Source: Micrococcales bacterium (GTDB taxonomy: Bacteria > Actinomycetota > Actinomycetes > S36-B12 > UBA10799). From it: DNA of 64,000 bases. The stretch spans positions 214,505-278,504 of the forward strand of contig JADJCR010000003.1 in the NCBI GenBank assembly GCA_016703125.1, in the 5' to 3' direction. Below are positions 20,624 to 29,655 of this stretch, piece after piece. The position numbers were made by a program, and so were the translations under genes. Under the pieces are notes generated by a model, which was not told the DNA's origin, did no database searches, and was given only the letters and a program-made list of their open reading frames with translations. Position 1 is the stretch's first letter. Each line of letters starts with the position of its first letter.

Positions 20624-24657
<4,034 letters not shown>

Positions 24658-24659
24658 TC

Positions 24660-25040
24660 ATGGCGAGCCTCAATGTCGCGATGGTGTCGACCCGGCGCAA
24701 TGTCTGGGAGGGCGAGGCGTCGCTGGTCGTGCTGCGCACCCTGGATGGCGAGATCGGGTTGATGCCCGGTCACTCCCCGATGATGGGGATGCTGGCTGAC
24801 GGTCCGATCCTCATCCGCCCGACCGAGGGTGAGGACCTGCGGGCGTACATCCACGAGGGTTTCGCCACGATGGACGGCAACCGCGTCATCATCCTGGCCG
24901 AGTGGCTCGAGTTGGCCGGCGAGATCGACGTCCGGCAGGCCGAGCAAGAGCTTGAGGCGGCTCGGGCCAAGGGCACCGAGGCCGAGGTCCGCAAGCAGGA
25001 GGGCCGGCTGCAGGTCGCAGTGGGTCCGCGCCACCACTAG
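24660..25040 (+). CDS. atpC: F0F1 ATP synthase subunit epsilon
   Basis: ATG 24660. 126 aa with ..GEIGLMPGHSPMMGML.. and a C-terminal helical hairpin. Confidence 0.92.
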   Translation: MASLNVAMVSTRRNVWEGEASLVVLRTLDGEIGLMPGHSPMMGMLADGPILIRPTEGEDLRAYIHEGFATMDGNRVIILAEWLELAGEIDVRQAEQELEAARAKGTEAEVRKQEGRLQVAVGPRHH

Positions 25041-25090
25041 TCCCGCCCGCCCGCGCCTTTGTGACGAAGGTGCGGCCCTAAGAAGTCCGT

Positions 25091-25186
25091 TTGTGACGAA
25101 GGTGCGGGGTCTCCCCGCCGGAGACCCCGCACCTTCGTCGCATTGCGACGATGGTGTCTCGCACCTTCGCCACAATCACCCTGTCC
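25091..25186. repeat. 96-bp structured repeat unit, left copy (long hairpin of a 16-nt motif plus a second degenerate inverted pair)
   Basis: 87/96 identical to 26049-26144 in direct orientation. TTGTGACGAAGGTGCG (25091-25106) pairs with its reverse complement at 25128-25143 (24-nt arms, 5-nt loop). Contains the DUF559 stop codon (25176-25178). Confidence 0.85.
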
Positions 25187-26055
25187 ACCCTCGGGTCCGC
25201 ATGACGCGTTCCACTTGGTCGACGGAAGCGTGAAGGTCCCGGAAATGGCGGCCGGTCCACACCAGGCACTCCCAGCCGTGCTCGGCGTAGGCGTTGCGGG
25301 TCTGCGCGTCCTGGTGTCGCTGCCGGCGCTCACCGTGGTGGATTCCGTCGTACTCGATGATCAGGCGGTACGCACGCCACACCAGATCACCGCAGCCGAG
25401 CCATTCGCCTTCTTCGATGATGTCCAGGTTGATCTCCGGGGCGGGCAGGCCGCGCTGGTGCAGTTCAACCCGCAGCAGGGACTCTCGCACCGACCGGCTC
25501 CGAGGGTCGGCCAGCGCGGCCGCGTCCCGCAGAACGGGCGCACCTCTGGTGCCCGGTGGCACGGCGAGGTCGGCGAGCAGTCCACGGCGCTCCTGCGAGG
25601 TCCATCCATGTCCGCCGGTAGCCGGTCACGGGCACGGCACCGATGGTGAGGACCTCGCTCAGCCCTCGCTGGTGCCACGCGACGGCCTTGCGAGTGCCAC
25701 GTCTGGTCGGCACGGTGACGTGGAAAGGCCGGCCATCCGGGTGCGGGGTCGGCAGGCCGAGCAGTTGGGCCGCCGTGGTGTGGGAGAACGCTGCGTCCGT
25801 GGGCAGAGTCAGAGCCACCGCCGCCACGTCGTCGAGCCAGGAGCGTGCGGCGGCGTCCGTGCGCACCCCGCGAGTCGGCTTGCGCAGGCCGGCGCGCCGC
25901 GACTGCGCATACGTGAGCTCAGGGGTTCCGCTCTTGGTGATGAGGAAGGGCACCGGTCCAGCGTGGGACACCGAACGGGTGGGGAACGAGCCGCTGCGGA
26001 ATCTGTGGACGAGCGATTGTGGCGAAGGTGCGGCCCCGGTGGGTCGGTTTGTCAC
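25176..26055 (-). pseudogene. DUF559 / Vsr-like endonuclease-fold domain protein, frameshifted
   Basis: The N-terminal part (..ELTYAQSRRAGLRKPTRGVRT..HTTAAQLLGLP..FHVTVP..VPVTGYRRTWMDLAG) is in ORF 25465..26055. The C-terminal DUF559 core (..SVRESLLRVELHQRGLPAPEINLDI..GCGDLVWRAYRLIIEYDGIHH..) is in ORF 25176..25562. The switch is near 25590-25596. The true start may be GTG 25971. Confidence 0.7.
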
Positions 26056-26144
26056 GATGGTGCGCGGTGTGCCCGCCGGAGACCGCGCACCTTCGTCACA
26101 ATGCGACGATGGTGTCTCGCACCTTCGTCACAATCACCCTGTCC
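26049..26144. repeat. 96-bp structured repeat unit, right copy
   Basis: Direct repeat of 25091-25186 (9 mismatches), offset 958 bp. It carries the same tcaccctgtcc tail that forms the DUF559 3' end in the left copy, but with no ORF attached. Confidence 0.85.
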
Positions 26145-26233
26145 GGGCTGTCGTGACGTAGAACTGTCCGCCATCTCACGAGAGACACCTTCGCCACAAA
26201 GGGGGCGGCAGGGGCGACGAAGGGGCGGGCCGC

Positions 26234-26797
26234 CTACCGCTCCCCCCCTGGCACCCACAGCACGTCCCCGCCGGGGTTCGCCACCCGCGCCAGGATGAAC
26301 AGCAGGTCCGAGAGGCGGTTCAGGTAGTGGGCGGTCAGGGGGTTCATCGCGGCGTCGTACTCGCCGAGGGCCCGCCAGGTGGACCGCTCAGCGCGACGGG
26401 TGACGGTGCGGGCGACGTGCAGCAGCGCCGAGGCAGCGGTGCCGCCGGGGAGGATGAAAGAACGCAGGTTCGGCAGGTCCTCGTTGAACCGGTCGCATTC
26501 AACTTCGAGTCGGTCGATGTAGTCCTGGGTCACCCGCAGCGCCGGGCCCTCCCCTCCGAGCGGCGTGCAAAGGTCCGCCCCCACGTCGAACAACTCGTTC
26601 TGGATCCGCTGCAGAGCCGGCGCGACCGGAGCGGGGGGTTCGCCGAGGGCCAGCACAACGCCGATCGCACTGTTGGCCTCGTCGACGTCGGCGTAGGCCT
26701 CCAGACGCGGATCCGTCTTGGACGTGCGACTGAAATCGCCGAGAGAAGTGGACCCGTCGTCGCCGGTGCGGGTGTAGATGCGCGTCAGGTTCACCAT
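26234..26797 (-). CDS. pduO: ATP:cob(I)alamin adenosyltransferase, PduO type
   Basis: ATG 26797. MVNLTRIYTRTGDDGSTSL (N-terminal ATP-binding motif), ..LPGG..AALHVARTVTRRAER.. 187 aa. The longer ORF to 27085 is read-through. Confidence 0.88.
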   Translation of the reverse strand: MVNLTRIYTRTGDDGSTSLGDFSRTSKTDPRLEAYADVDEANSAIGVVLALGEPPAPVAPALQRIQNELFDVGADLCTPLGGEGPALRVTQDYIDRLEVECDRFNEDLPNLRSFILPGGTAASALLHVARTVTRRAERSTWRALGEYDAAMNPLTAHYLNRLSDLLFILARVANPGGDVLWVPGGER

Positions 26798-26860
26798 GCT
26801 TTCGACCCTAAGGCAGAATGACGCACATGGTGGACGCCCGAGATCGGTTTTACATCCAGG

Positions 26861-28857
26861 GTGGCGACCATGGCTTCCATGGCTTCGATCGCCATGTCCT
26901 ACCAGCCAGGTCTGCTGCCCCGCAGTGTCGGTGACCAAGCGATCCTCACGGGTCTGACCAGCGCCGTGAACTACGGTCTGGTGGCCGTGACCGGGTCGGC
27001 GGTGGAGGGTGTGGCCACTGCGCTGGTGGGCCGCGAGCGCATGCAGCGACCCGGTGTGGCGGCCACGACCCACGGGGTCGCGCACGCCACCGTCGCTGCC
27101 ACCAGCGTCGCCGTGCGCCGCATGCTCCCTCCCCGCGACGGTGAGCCGTTGCGGCGTGCCACGTTGCGCAGCGCGGGTTGGGTGGGGGCCGTGACCGGGG
27201 TCACCGGCCTGATCGCCTCCGGCATCCTCGGCATCGGGGAAGTCATGGAAGCGCGCACCGGGCGCAGCTACCGCCGGTTCGTCGGTCCGGGGACACTGGC
27301 TGTCGCCACCGCCACCGCGGTCGCCCTGACCGCACGGACCCGCCGTGACGCCAAGCGCGACCTGCTGCCGCCGCCCGTGGACCCCTTGCCGCTGTCGGAG
27401 CAGGCCGTGGCCTTCGAAGAGCGCCAGGTCGCCAAGTACGAGAAGGTCCCGGCGTTGACCCGTTCGCTGCTGTTCGGGGCGGGGGTGAGCGCAGGCCTAC
27501 AGGGGGCCGCCTTCGCCGAGTCGCTGGCTGCCGAGGGCATCGCTGCCGGCGTGCGCAAAGCCGCACCCTCCATGGCGCCGTTCGCCAACTGGCTGGGGCA
27601 CACAGTCACGCTTGGCGCGGTCGGGGTCGCCGTCGTGTCGGGGCTCGAATACGTGAACCGGCAAGCCGACGCCGGTGGCGCGGCCATCGAGGCCGCCTAC
27701 AACAAACAGCCCACCATGCTCACGGTCTCCGGCGGCCCCGGCTCCCAGATCCCGTTCGACACCCTCAGCCGGGAGGGCCGGCGGATCGTCAACATGGCGC
27801 TTCCCGCCCACGAGATCGCCGAGGTGACCGGCAAGCCCGCCATCGACCCGATCCGTGCCTTCGCCGGGATCGCCACCGCCGAAATGGTCGATGAGCGCGT
27901 CGATGTGCTCATGCGCGAACTCGAGGATATGGGCGCGTTCGAGCGCAAGGTCCTGTGCTTCTGTTCGCCCACGGGGACCGGCTACCTGAACTACGTGATG
28001 ATGGAGACGCTGGAGTACCTCACCGGCGGTGACTGTGCGACGTTCGCGCTGCAGTACTCGCTGCGCCCCTCGTTCATCTCCCTGGACCGGGTCGCGATGG
28101 GCCGGGAGCAGAACCGGGCGATGCTGCATGCACTCACCTGGCGGCTGCGGGCGATTGCGCCGGACAAGCGCCCGAAGTTCGTGGTCTTCGGGGAGTCGTT
28201 GGGTGCGCACACCATGCAGGACGCTTTCCTGCACGAGGGCATCAACGGATTCGCGCGGGCCGGGGTGGACCGGGCGCTGTTTATCGGCACCCCCGCCGCC
28301 AGCGGCTGGGCGAAGCGCTGGCGGGAGGACAAGGAGAAGACCGACCCGCAGGGCCGGGTCGTCGAGGTGGCAGGTTTCGAGGAGTACCTCGCACTGCCGC
28401 AGGAACAGCGCGAAGGGGTCGACGTCTTCCTGGTCAGCCACCATGAGGACCCGATCGTGAAGTTCGAGCCGGAACTGGCGGTGCGGGTGCCCCGCTGGTT
28501 GCGGCCACCGCGCGAGGACGGCGTGCCCCGCGGCATGCGCTGGCGGCCCGTCGGCACGTTCCTGAACGTCGGCGTGGACCTCAAGAACAGCACGGATGTC
28601 GTGCCGGGGGTGTTCGTGGCTCGTGGCCATGACTACCGGGCCGATCTGGCGCGTTTCACCGCCCTGGCGTTCGACCTGTCAGCCGAGGAACAGACCCTGT
28701 TGCGTGTGGAACGGGCCTTCGTGCCCGCGAACTGGAATGGGCCACCGACCGGGTCCAGGCCGAACAGTTGCAGCGGGCGTCCGAGGCGTTGCAGCGACAG
28801 TTGAGCCAGTGGGGGATCTCCGACCTGTCGGGGTCGATCACGGCGCCGATCGCATAG
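26861..28857 (+). CDS. membrane-anchored alpha/beta hydrolase (Abhydrolase_9-like); probable frameshift near the 3' end
   Basis: N-terminal multi-TM region plus a hydrolase core with nucleophile elbow FGESLGAHT. The raw ORF stops at 28804. A much more protein-like tail (ARELEWATDRVQAEQLQRASEALQRQLSQWGISDLSGSITAPIA*) runs in the adjacent frame from about CCC 28724-28726 to TAG 28855-28857. Confidence 0.6.
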
Positions 28858-29563: not shown

Positions 29564-29655
29564 TCGGGCCGCGCGACGACCGACCCGCACACCTGTCGCA
29601 ATAGCCGGGCGCCTGCGGGGAACCGGCCACGCGGCCGGCGACCCGGACGTATCCT

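Follow-up and report, generated by a model that had tools for sequence, protein, structure and literature searches.

In RAYT-REPIN systems, an enzyme gene is flanked by its own repeats, and copies of these repeats are also scattered (PMC3116915, PMC3337134, PMC3733652). AbiEi binds two 23-bp inverted repeats that lie 3 bp apart; for Rv2827c the inverted repeats are likewise 23 bp long but form two tandem pairs with gaps of 13 bp. Both proteins are specific for their own repeats, and each represses its own promoter (PMC7319586). I-Bth0305I has an N-terminal DNA-binding region, is a homodimer with a footprint of about 60 bp, and cuts a pseudopalindromic target, and the EDxHD (Vsr-like) homing endonucleases include free-standing members (PMC3239194). 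The locus described here lies in a stretch of 64,000 nucleotides from a Micrococcales bacterium (contig JADJCR010000003.1 of assembly GCA_016703125.1; the whole stretch is referred to as the window), in which two 117-nt arrays of a 16-nt box bracket a single minus-strand gene for a putative nuclease between atpC and a pduO-type gene. Such bracketing is a property of the family to which the gene belongs.

The locus resembles the RAYT-REPIN systems in that a chromosomal, apparently vertically inherited enzyme gene has palindromic repeat copies on both sides, that different paralogues are paired with different repeat families, that the gene is not found on plasmids or phages, and that the repeat can also be scattered through intergenic DNA of the same genome, as in the relative BC1.147. 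In contrast, the enzyme is predicted to combine an AbiEi winged helix with a Vsr/DUF559 PD-(D/E)xK nuclease and is not an IS200/IS605-like HUH/Y1 tyrosine transposase. The units are also longer (half-sites of 17–30 bp, or four 16-nt boxes at fixed spacing), their spacers are not conserved, no GTAG or CGTC tag is established, and in most of the genomes sampled the repeats occur only at the gene flanks. The module can be seen as analogous to RAYT/REPIN, with a vertically inherited enzyme gene and palindromic repeats of its own but an unrelated enzyme.

With AbiEi and Rv2827c the protein appears to share a homologous N-terminal domain, and the geometry of the units resembles that of their operators, including the doubling found for Rv2827c. 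Unlike the AbiE type IV toxin-antitoxin systems, the locus has no AbiEii (DUF1814) partner, the C-terminal antitoxicity domain is replaced by a predicted nuclease, and arrays of sites flank the gene on either side and, in some genomes, are found at many further loci. The arrangement of an N-terminal DNA-binding region and a C-terminal Vsr-like nuclease is that of I-Bth0305I, and the units of 52–65 bp compare with its site of about 60 bp, but the gene is not in an intron or intein and carries an AbiEi winged helix rather than NUMOD. The locus also differs from EDxHD homing endonucleases in that the sites are intact on both sides of the gene and the synteny is long stable. A search of the literature on DUF559/PF04480 proteins, which was incomplete and is no proof of novelty, found no link to flanking repeats.

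The atpC-pduO locus

The features of the locus, in window positions, are as follows.

24660–25040, plus strand: atpC (ATP synthase epsilon; Pfam ATP-synt_DE_N, E = 1.2e-19)
25052–25186, no strand: downstream repeat copy; unit proper 25059–25175, then the 12-nt tail ATCACCCTGTCC, which includes the stop codon
Boxes of the downstream unit: 25059–25074 (+), 25091–25106 (+), 25128–25143 (-), 25143–25158 (+, degenerate), 25160–25175 (-)
25176–25953, minus strand: nuclease pseudogene (AbiEi-like domain plus DUF559/Vsr-like nuclease, both predicted); GTG start 25953–25951, stop 25178–25176
26002–26009, minus strand: TCCACAG-type box GTCCACAG (CTGTGGAC on the plus strand), 49–56 nt upstream of the start
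26010–26144, no strand: upstream repeat copy; unit proper 26017–26133, then the 12-nt tail ATCACCCTGTCC
Boxes of the upstream unit: 26017–26032 (+), 26049–26064 (+), 26086–26101 (-), 26101–26116 (+, degenerate), 26118–26133 (-)
26184–26229: remnant boxes, at 26184–26199 (-, 3 mismatches) and about 26212–26229 (+, degenerate)
26234–26797, minus strand: pduO-type cobalamin adenosyltransferase (Pfam Cob_adeno_trans, E = 2.7e-59)

The two copies of the direct repeat (25052–25186 and 26010–26144) are 135 nt long, 85% identical, and 958 bp apart from start to start. A preliminary description of the window had given the repeats and their offset correctly but had put their length at 96 nt. Each copy contains four or five copies of the 16-nt box TTGTGACGAAGGTGCG in the order + + - (+) -, with box starts 32, 37, and 32 nt apart, and the four-box unit + + - - at a spacing of 31–32/37/31–32 nt is fixed and was found again in other genomes. 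The boxes at 25059–25074 and 26017–26032, previously regarded as solo copies, are the outer arms of this unit and not extras. At up to three mismatches TTGTGACGAAGGTGCG occurs nine times in the window, always within 25059–26199, against a chance expectation of 0.64, and none of 100 shuffled sequences reached nine copies; with four mismatches allowed, the cluster at the locus grows to 12 copies. Pairs of boxes at hairpin spacing are limited to the two inner pairs, with none elsewhere in the 64 kb and none in the shuffles, in agreement with the earlier statement that the motif is confined to this locus. Folded as single strands, both units form nested hairpins (-46.0 kcal/mol, z = -8.9, for the downstream unit; -45.6 kcal/mol, z = -6.2, for the upstream unit). 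The stop codon at 25176–25178 abuts the last box of the downstream unit, and the same 12 nt (ATCACCCTGTCC) trail both units; the duplicated tract therefore takes in the last four codons of the gene.

The remnant boxes at 26184–26229 probably represent a decayed partial third unit; this region has no significant fold (z = -0.11). Between the window and the sister strains (contigs L121 and L122), the tract 26184–26250 differs by 1-nt and 10-nt indels, the latter an insertion in the sister strains, and the length of a C-run beside the pduO stop codon also differs; part of this variation may be long-read assembly error. In the orthologous loci L123 (6990–7036) and L128 (4200–4254), a separate hairpin, e.g. 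CGAAGGTGGGCG...CGCCCACCTTCG, lies between atpC and the unit and has a CGAAGGTG core in common with the box. The window does not have this hairpin, so that the unit itself may end atpC transcription here. A scan of 24000–27500 with the Rfam covariance models (E ≤ 1) gave no match, and scans of 24900–26400 for sigma-70 promoters and intrinsic terminators found none, a result that carries little weight in a high-GC actinobacterium. Both neighbors are conserved: atpC, on the left, is convergent with the nuclease gene, and the exact AtpC protein is on record in the sister-strain contigs; pduO, on the right, encodes 187 residues in sister-strain contig L122 and is present in relatives.

Two overlapping minus-strand open reading frames, 25176–25562 and 25465–26055, are halves of one gene, and the pseudogene is accordingly split into an N-terminal frame (25465–25953) and a C-terminal frame (25176–25562). 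Two sister strains, with contigs 98.9–99.2% identical over 20 kb, keep the gene intact at 273 residues. Relative to them (L121 10931–10974; L122), a 44-nt deletion near 25590 and one adjacent substitution inactivate the gene in the window strain only. The disruption of the gene had been recognized before and described as a frameshift; judged against the 99%-identical strains, its cause is the deletion. The flanking arrays are unchanged in the window, so that the loss of the gene is recent. By this comparison the window copy is a recently broken member of a widespread family in which a gene is accompanied by its putative sites.

The Pfam DUF559 model (PF04480) scores 20.1 bits with the C-terminal reading frame of the window and 18.0 bits with the intact orthologue, just below the gathering cut-off of 20.6 bits, but DUF559 matches are present in 34 of 63 family members at E ≤ 0.01 (best 5.6e-8), and the related MTES_1575 nuclease model matches 23 of the 63. 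The label DUF559, which had been applied to the gene at the outset, thus falls short on the Pfam score but is supported by the homologues and by the structure model. An AlphaFold (AF2) model built from the 63 homologues has a predicted local distance difference test (pLDDT) score of 95.4. Among solved structures, Foldseek matched the N-terminal region of the model to the AbiEi-family antitoxin Rv2827c (1zel, probability 0.94) and its C-terminal region to the Vsr-like catalytic domain of I-Bth0305I (3r3p, probability 1.0, template modeling (TM) score 0.73). Profile matches of the C-terminal region include PvuRts1I, 3hrl, and 3r3p, and the PADLOC AbiEi models match residues from about 22 to 160 (E = 1e-7 to 1e-10; 1.7e-8 to 4e-10 in four family members). 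Together, the AbiEi profile and the two structural matches point to an N-terminal AbiEi-type winged-helix DNA-binding domain fused to a C-terminal Vsr/DUF559 PD-(D/E)xK nuclease domain. Residues Asp204, Asp217, His221, and Asp230 are invariant or nearly so across the family and are the likely catalytic residues. A profile search (E ≤ 1e-10) placed 23,523 clusters at 50% identity in the family; NCBIfam contained no family that matched the protein.

Bracketing repeats across the family

Paralogues with about 50% identity are found at unrelated loci, namely between genes for a dTDP-sugar isomerase and a short-chain dehydrogenase, between amtB and ftsY, and by an alcohol dehydrogenase gene. Each is bracketed by direct repeats of its own, different hairpin-forming sequence. 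A test for enrichment of the window's motif beside DUF559 paralogues had been suggested; the paralogues are bracketed, but by their own repeats, and two of the paralogue box types, GCGACTGTTGCACCGTTG and TGTGACGTTGTTGC, gave no match when searched for in the window. The genes adjacent to the paralogues are housekeeping genes, with one hypothetical open reading frame in L127. No integrase or transposase was present among the called neighbors examined, nor was an AbiEii (DUF1814) toxin partner among the neighbors at the window locus or at the paralogue loci examined.

A metagenome scan with family alignment A4 provided 80 more family loci, at 29–66% identity; alignment A3 was too diverse and was set aside for this purpose. 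For each locus the 450 nt upstream of the gene were compared with the 450 nt downstream, with a match threshold of 35 bits. This threshold was reached in 60 of the 73 family loci with usable flanks, whereas permuted pairs of loci gave a mean of 20 bits and a maximum of 33.4 bits, and none of 147 neighboring genes in the same loci reached it (Fisher p = 1.5e-41 against 60/73). When near-identical loci were collapsed, 54 of 65 were bracketed; the better match was direct for 41 of these and inverted for the other 13. The repeats keep to the two flanks, and about 230 kb of outer flank yielded only 6 further matches. As had been proposed from the window, gene and structured repeats together make up a discrete module.

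The repeat sequence differs among paralogue lineages and yet agrees from one flank of a gene to the other. As a rule, the units are palindromes that have half-sites of 17–30 bp (most 18–24 bp) and gaps of 3–22 bp, and most measure 52–65 bp overall. In the 10 loci with a matching hairpin on both flanks, the half-sites are 88% identical between flanks as compared with 66% for the loops. A distant subfamily (L183, L189, L195, L204, and L182) has instead non-palindromic tandem repeats of 32 nt, CCGTCGAGAGGCCACGTCTGGCC..., in 3–5 copies; the array on one side of the gene is in inverted orientation to that on the other, as with transposon ends that have several binding sites. The outer ends of many half-sites read CGAG or TCGAG in the distant subfamily and TTGTG or TTGAG in the clade of the window. 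This hints at a conserved outer core and a variable inner part of the half-sites, the pattern to be expected from a single DNA-binding fold that recognizes every one of them. Here and there, a paralogue also has a solo copy of its own repeat in intergenic DNA, 1.4–3.7 kb from the gene (L126 9167–9293, L140 303–390, L143 5478–5537, and L135 2552–2604), so that low-level scattering is not restricted to the canonical box type.

A second shared element lies between the upstream repeat and the start codon. The sequence TCCACAG, or its reverse complement CTGTGGA, often extended to CTGTGGAT(A/G)A, is present there in 61 of 78 family loci (among L123–L213 and the window), compared with a chance expectation of about 1–2 of 78. 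Its distance from the start is fixed: for the window's subfamily it is -52 to -64 nt in the majority of loci, and in the distant subfamily about 45–50 nt before the real ATG. The heptamer matches the high-affinity DnaA boxes TTGTCCACA of Mycobacterium and Streptomyces and TTATCCACA of Escherichia coli (PMC4285127), and the element of the window, TCGTCCACA, resembles the former consensus. The element may be bound by DnaA or by another factor, or it may belong to the promoter.

Filled, empty, and scattered sites

The relatives of the window strain are named Candidatus Nanopelagicales. In other species, orthologues with 61–73% identity (P0006, P0007, P0009, and the protein of BC1.147) occupy the same gap between atpC and pduO, and their identities fall broadly in step with those of the neighboring AtpC. 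Each has box-bearing units on both sides, in which the box is kept at 0–3 mismatches and the spacers and loops have changed. The module is therefore old at this site and not a recent insertion, in contrast to the initial view of a cassette dropped into the junction. Unit pairs are 82–87% identical within one genome and 71–84% between genomes, and, when species are compared, similar spacers can be found in the upstream unit of one and the downstream unit of another. Sequence is exchanged between the two units, or else both are held to a common one.

Comparison of the spacer among relatives, which had been suggested as a check, showed it to be mostly filled with the same layout (window, L123, L128, L131, L136, and L214) and empty in one lineage (L215–L217). 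The polymorphism between filled and empty sites is between species; none was found within one species. The empty gap (L215 6380–6630; also L216 and L217) contains about 3.5 tandem hairpins of a variant sequence, GAGTGTGAGGTTGTTGC ... GCAACAACGCCGCACTC, with a 64-nt period; in this array a 50-nt variant hairpin is present in three full copies and one partial copy, in place of the canonical box. AtpC of the empty-site lineage is 77% identical, and the AtpC and AtpD distances, the AtpD comparison leaving out the window, are no greater than for some filled lineages. The array may be what was left when the gene was lost, or it may be a target array. Judged from these short proteins, gene loss would be the simpler reading.

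A scan of a genome collection for the box yielded at least 120 loci, and copy numbers per genome are lower bounds. The window's own genome is not among the matches listed. Among those matches, multi-box units occur in only three actinobacterial metagenome-assembled genomes: at least 13 blocks of 8 kb in Nanopelagicales BC1.147, besides the locus of its orthologue, at least seven such blocks in Actinomycetota HK-STAS-ACTI-17, and at least one in a Micrococcales genome. Scattering like that of repetitive extragenic palindromic (REP) sequences is thus seen in two related genomes, BC1.147 and HK-STAS-ACTI-17. The scattered units are intergenic and often touch a stop codon, and many lie at gene 3' ends in BC1.147. 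Searches of the 120 listed loci by tblastn with both halves of the protein and with the family hidden Markov model found no family gene near them; the scattered units are therefore not beside paralogues. Viral contigs contained no units, and the 16 boxes found in them, all single and isolated, agree with what chance would give for one 16-mer.

BC1.147 is a relative of the window strain (AtpC 84% identical) with the orthologue in the atpC-pduO gap and units at L214 6402–6516 and 7485–7599. A solo five-box unit lies 3.4 kb away in its Rce1-murA spacer (L214 10960–11108), a spacer that is short and free of units in four relatives, L215 and L123 among them. At the aligned spot in the window (29585–29602) only CCGCACACCTGTCGCAAT is present, which may be a decayed single box. 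In the scattered units as a whole, the box spacing is fixed and the boxes are 79–88% alike as compared with 52–59% for the spacers (random level 52%); for 16 units of BC1.147 the values are 83–88% and 55–58% (random level 52%). With spacers at the random level, the scattered units appear to be old or individually selected and not recent copies.

Candidate roles of the arrays

The architecture of the locus, its recurrence across the family, the lineage specificity of the repeats, their conservation, and their dispersal in relatives are what an explanation has to cover. Because the repeats are lineage-specific, the boxes are conserved between random spacers at a fixed spacing of about three helical turns, and the DNA-binding domain is homologous to that of AbiEi, the most economical reading is that the 16-nt boxes on both sides of the gene would be the cognate binding sites of the protein. 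Recognition sites had been one of two options put forward for the repeats, and it is the one favored by the comparative evidence. We take it, with moderate confidence, that cognate arrays flank an autoregulated nuclease gene and that recombination provoked by the nuclease keeps the arrays alike and occasionally seeds solo arrays. In the proposed mechanism, the boxes would act in inverted pairs with the geometry of AbiEi-family operators, doubled into the 117-nt four-box unit. Protein on the upstream array would repress its own promoter, as AbiEi and Rv2827c do, in a promoter region that has the DnaA-box-like element, and binding at both arrays would tether the nuclease to its own locus. Recombination at the boxes would then maintain the similarity of the two arrays and, in some lineages, place solo arrays at other intergenic sites. 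Binding, cleavage, and mobilization are here what we infer from comparison of sequences.

Several results weigh against this reading. No bracket repeat was found at the threshold used in 11 of the 65 distinct loci, no target-site duplication was seen at the unit borders, and selection for one binding sequence on both flanks could by itself account for their similarity, with no recombination involved. Scattered units that are old or individually kept would weaken the case for active mobilization, and the identity of their boxes is partly set by the search. In the genome of the window, no scattering was found elsewhere in the 64 kb, and 12.8 kb of a second contig from a sister-strain assembly contained no unit. 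No family member was present in a plasmid collection (E ≤ 1e-8) or in a phage collection (E ≤ 1e-5).

The chief alternative is pure autoregulation, in which the arrays would be operators, possibly also roadblocks or terminators, that keep a potentially toxic nuclease under tight repression from either side of its gene; the enzyme would act elsewhere, e.g. in repair or defense, and never on the arrays, and the scattered units would be a regulon or an unrelated co-option. This agrees with the repression of their own promoters by AbiEi and Rv2827c through 23-bp inverted repeats (PMC7319586), with an upstream unit that ends 59–150 nt before the start in most loci, with half-sites that are better kept than loops, with the long-stable synteny, and with the lack of the family from the plasmid and phage collections. 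It leaves unexplained, however, why a full copy of the operator array lies downstream of nearly every family gene, why in the window the duplication extends 12 nt past the unit into the last four codons, why spacer similarity crosses between upstream and downstream positions among species, why one lineage has a gene-less array at the same site, and why box units lie at many gene 3' ends in BC1.147. We regard it as a rather doubtful account of the whole pattern.

A homing-type selfish gene, whose nuclease would cut solo arrays so that repair from the filled allele copies the gene between two arrays, overlaps with the reading that we prefer but is unlikely in itself. The catalytic domain is closest to that of the homing endonuclease I-Bth0305I, and the gene is present at the atpC-pduO site in some lineages but missing from one, which has hairpin arrays there and by AtpC and AtpD identity appears nested among the filled ones. 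Classical homing, however, does not leave sites intact on both sides of the gene after insertion, the orthologues look vertically inherited with identities of 61–73% that broadly track AtpC, the hairpins of the empty site have a variant sequence in place of the canonical box, and filled and empty alleles were not found together within any species.

It is much less likely that the repeats are generic REP elements, miniature inverted-repeat transposable elements (MITEs), or integron-like attC cassettes moved by an unlinked enzyme, with the DUF559 gene as a passenger or at a chance hotspot. The scattered units of BC1.147 and HK-STAS-ACTI-17 have no family gene in their vicinity, and an open reading frame between directly oriented, hairpin-forming imperfect palindromes of 55–140 nt resembles an integron attC cassette and the hairpin ends of IS200/IS605. 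Unlike in those elements, the bracketed gene always belongs to the same family, no integrase or TnpA is encoded among the called neighbors, which are housekeeping genes, the sequence of the half-sites and not their structure alone is conserved, and one subfamily has non-palindromic 32-nt tandem arrays in inverted orientation. The identity of the spacers at the random level (52–59%) despite conserved boxes, the lack of conservation of a whole element, and the lack of a duplication at the unit borders are also unlike a MITE. Moreover, bracketing was found for 60 of 73 family genes and for none of the 147 neighbors. Of the REP/MITE option raised for the window, the REP-like scattering was borne out in the two related genomes, but, given that the repeats follow the lineage of the protein in their sequence, capture or duplication around the gene by a generic MITE is unlikely. 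Least probable of all is a one-off ancient local duplication without function: the layout is common to all close relatives, which had been named as a sign of a purely local duplication, but an old neutral copy would decay, whereas the boxes are kept at 0–3 mismatches between diverged spacers and beside proteins of 61–73% identity, and that interpretation is overridden because the architecture recurs across the family with unrelated sequences at other loci and paralogues. These last two explanations, the generic element and the functionless duplication, are contradicted by the controls.

The DUF559/AbiEi-fusion proteins are a very large family without an assigned function. The family follows a rule that can be checked statistically: the gene lies between two copies of its own lineage-specific array, usually palindromic, with a DnaA-box-like element upstream. 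If the boxes are the sites of the protein, the family would offer thousands of natural protein-site pairs for the study of how DNA recognition evolves, and a second vertically inherited association of an enzyme with repeats would stand beside RAYT-REPIN. REP classes such as the CGTC type have no known dedicated enzyme (PMC3733652); in that case the REP-like repeats of some Actinomycetota would gain a candidate enzyme. It is possible, and we put it forward tentatively, that the module is a second, independent, and long-lived partnership between a nuclease and repeats, in which the enzyme maintains and occasionally spreads its own site arrays, these being the REP-like elements of some Actinomycetota, and in which expression may be linked to DnaA by way of the conserved DnaA-box-like element. 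Such a partnership, if true, would assign a function to a family that numbers over 23,000 clusters at 50% identity, and a class of intergenic palindromes of actinobacteria would have its dedicated enzyme.

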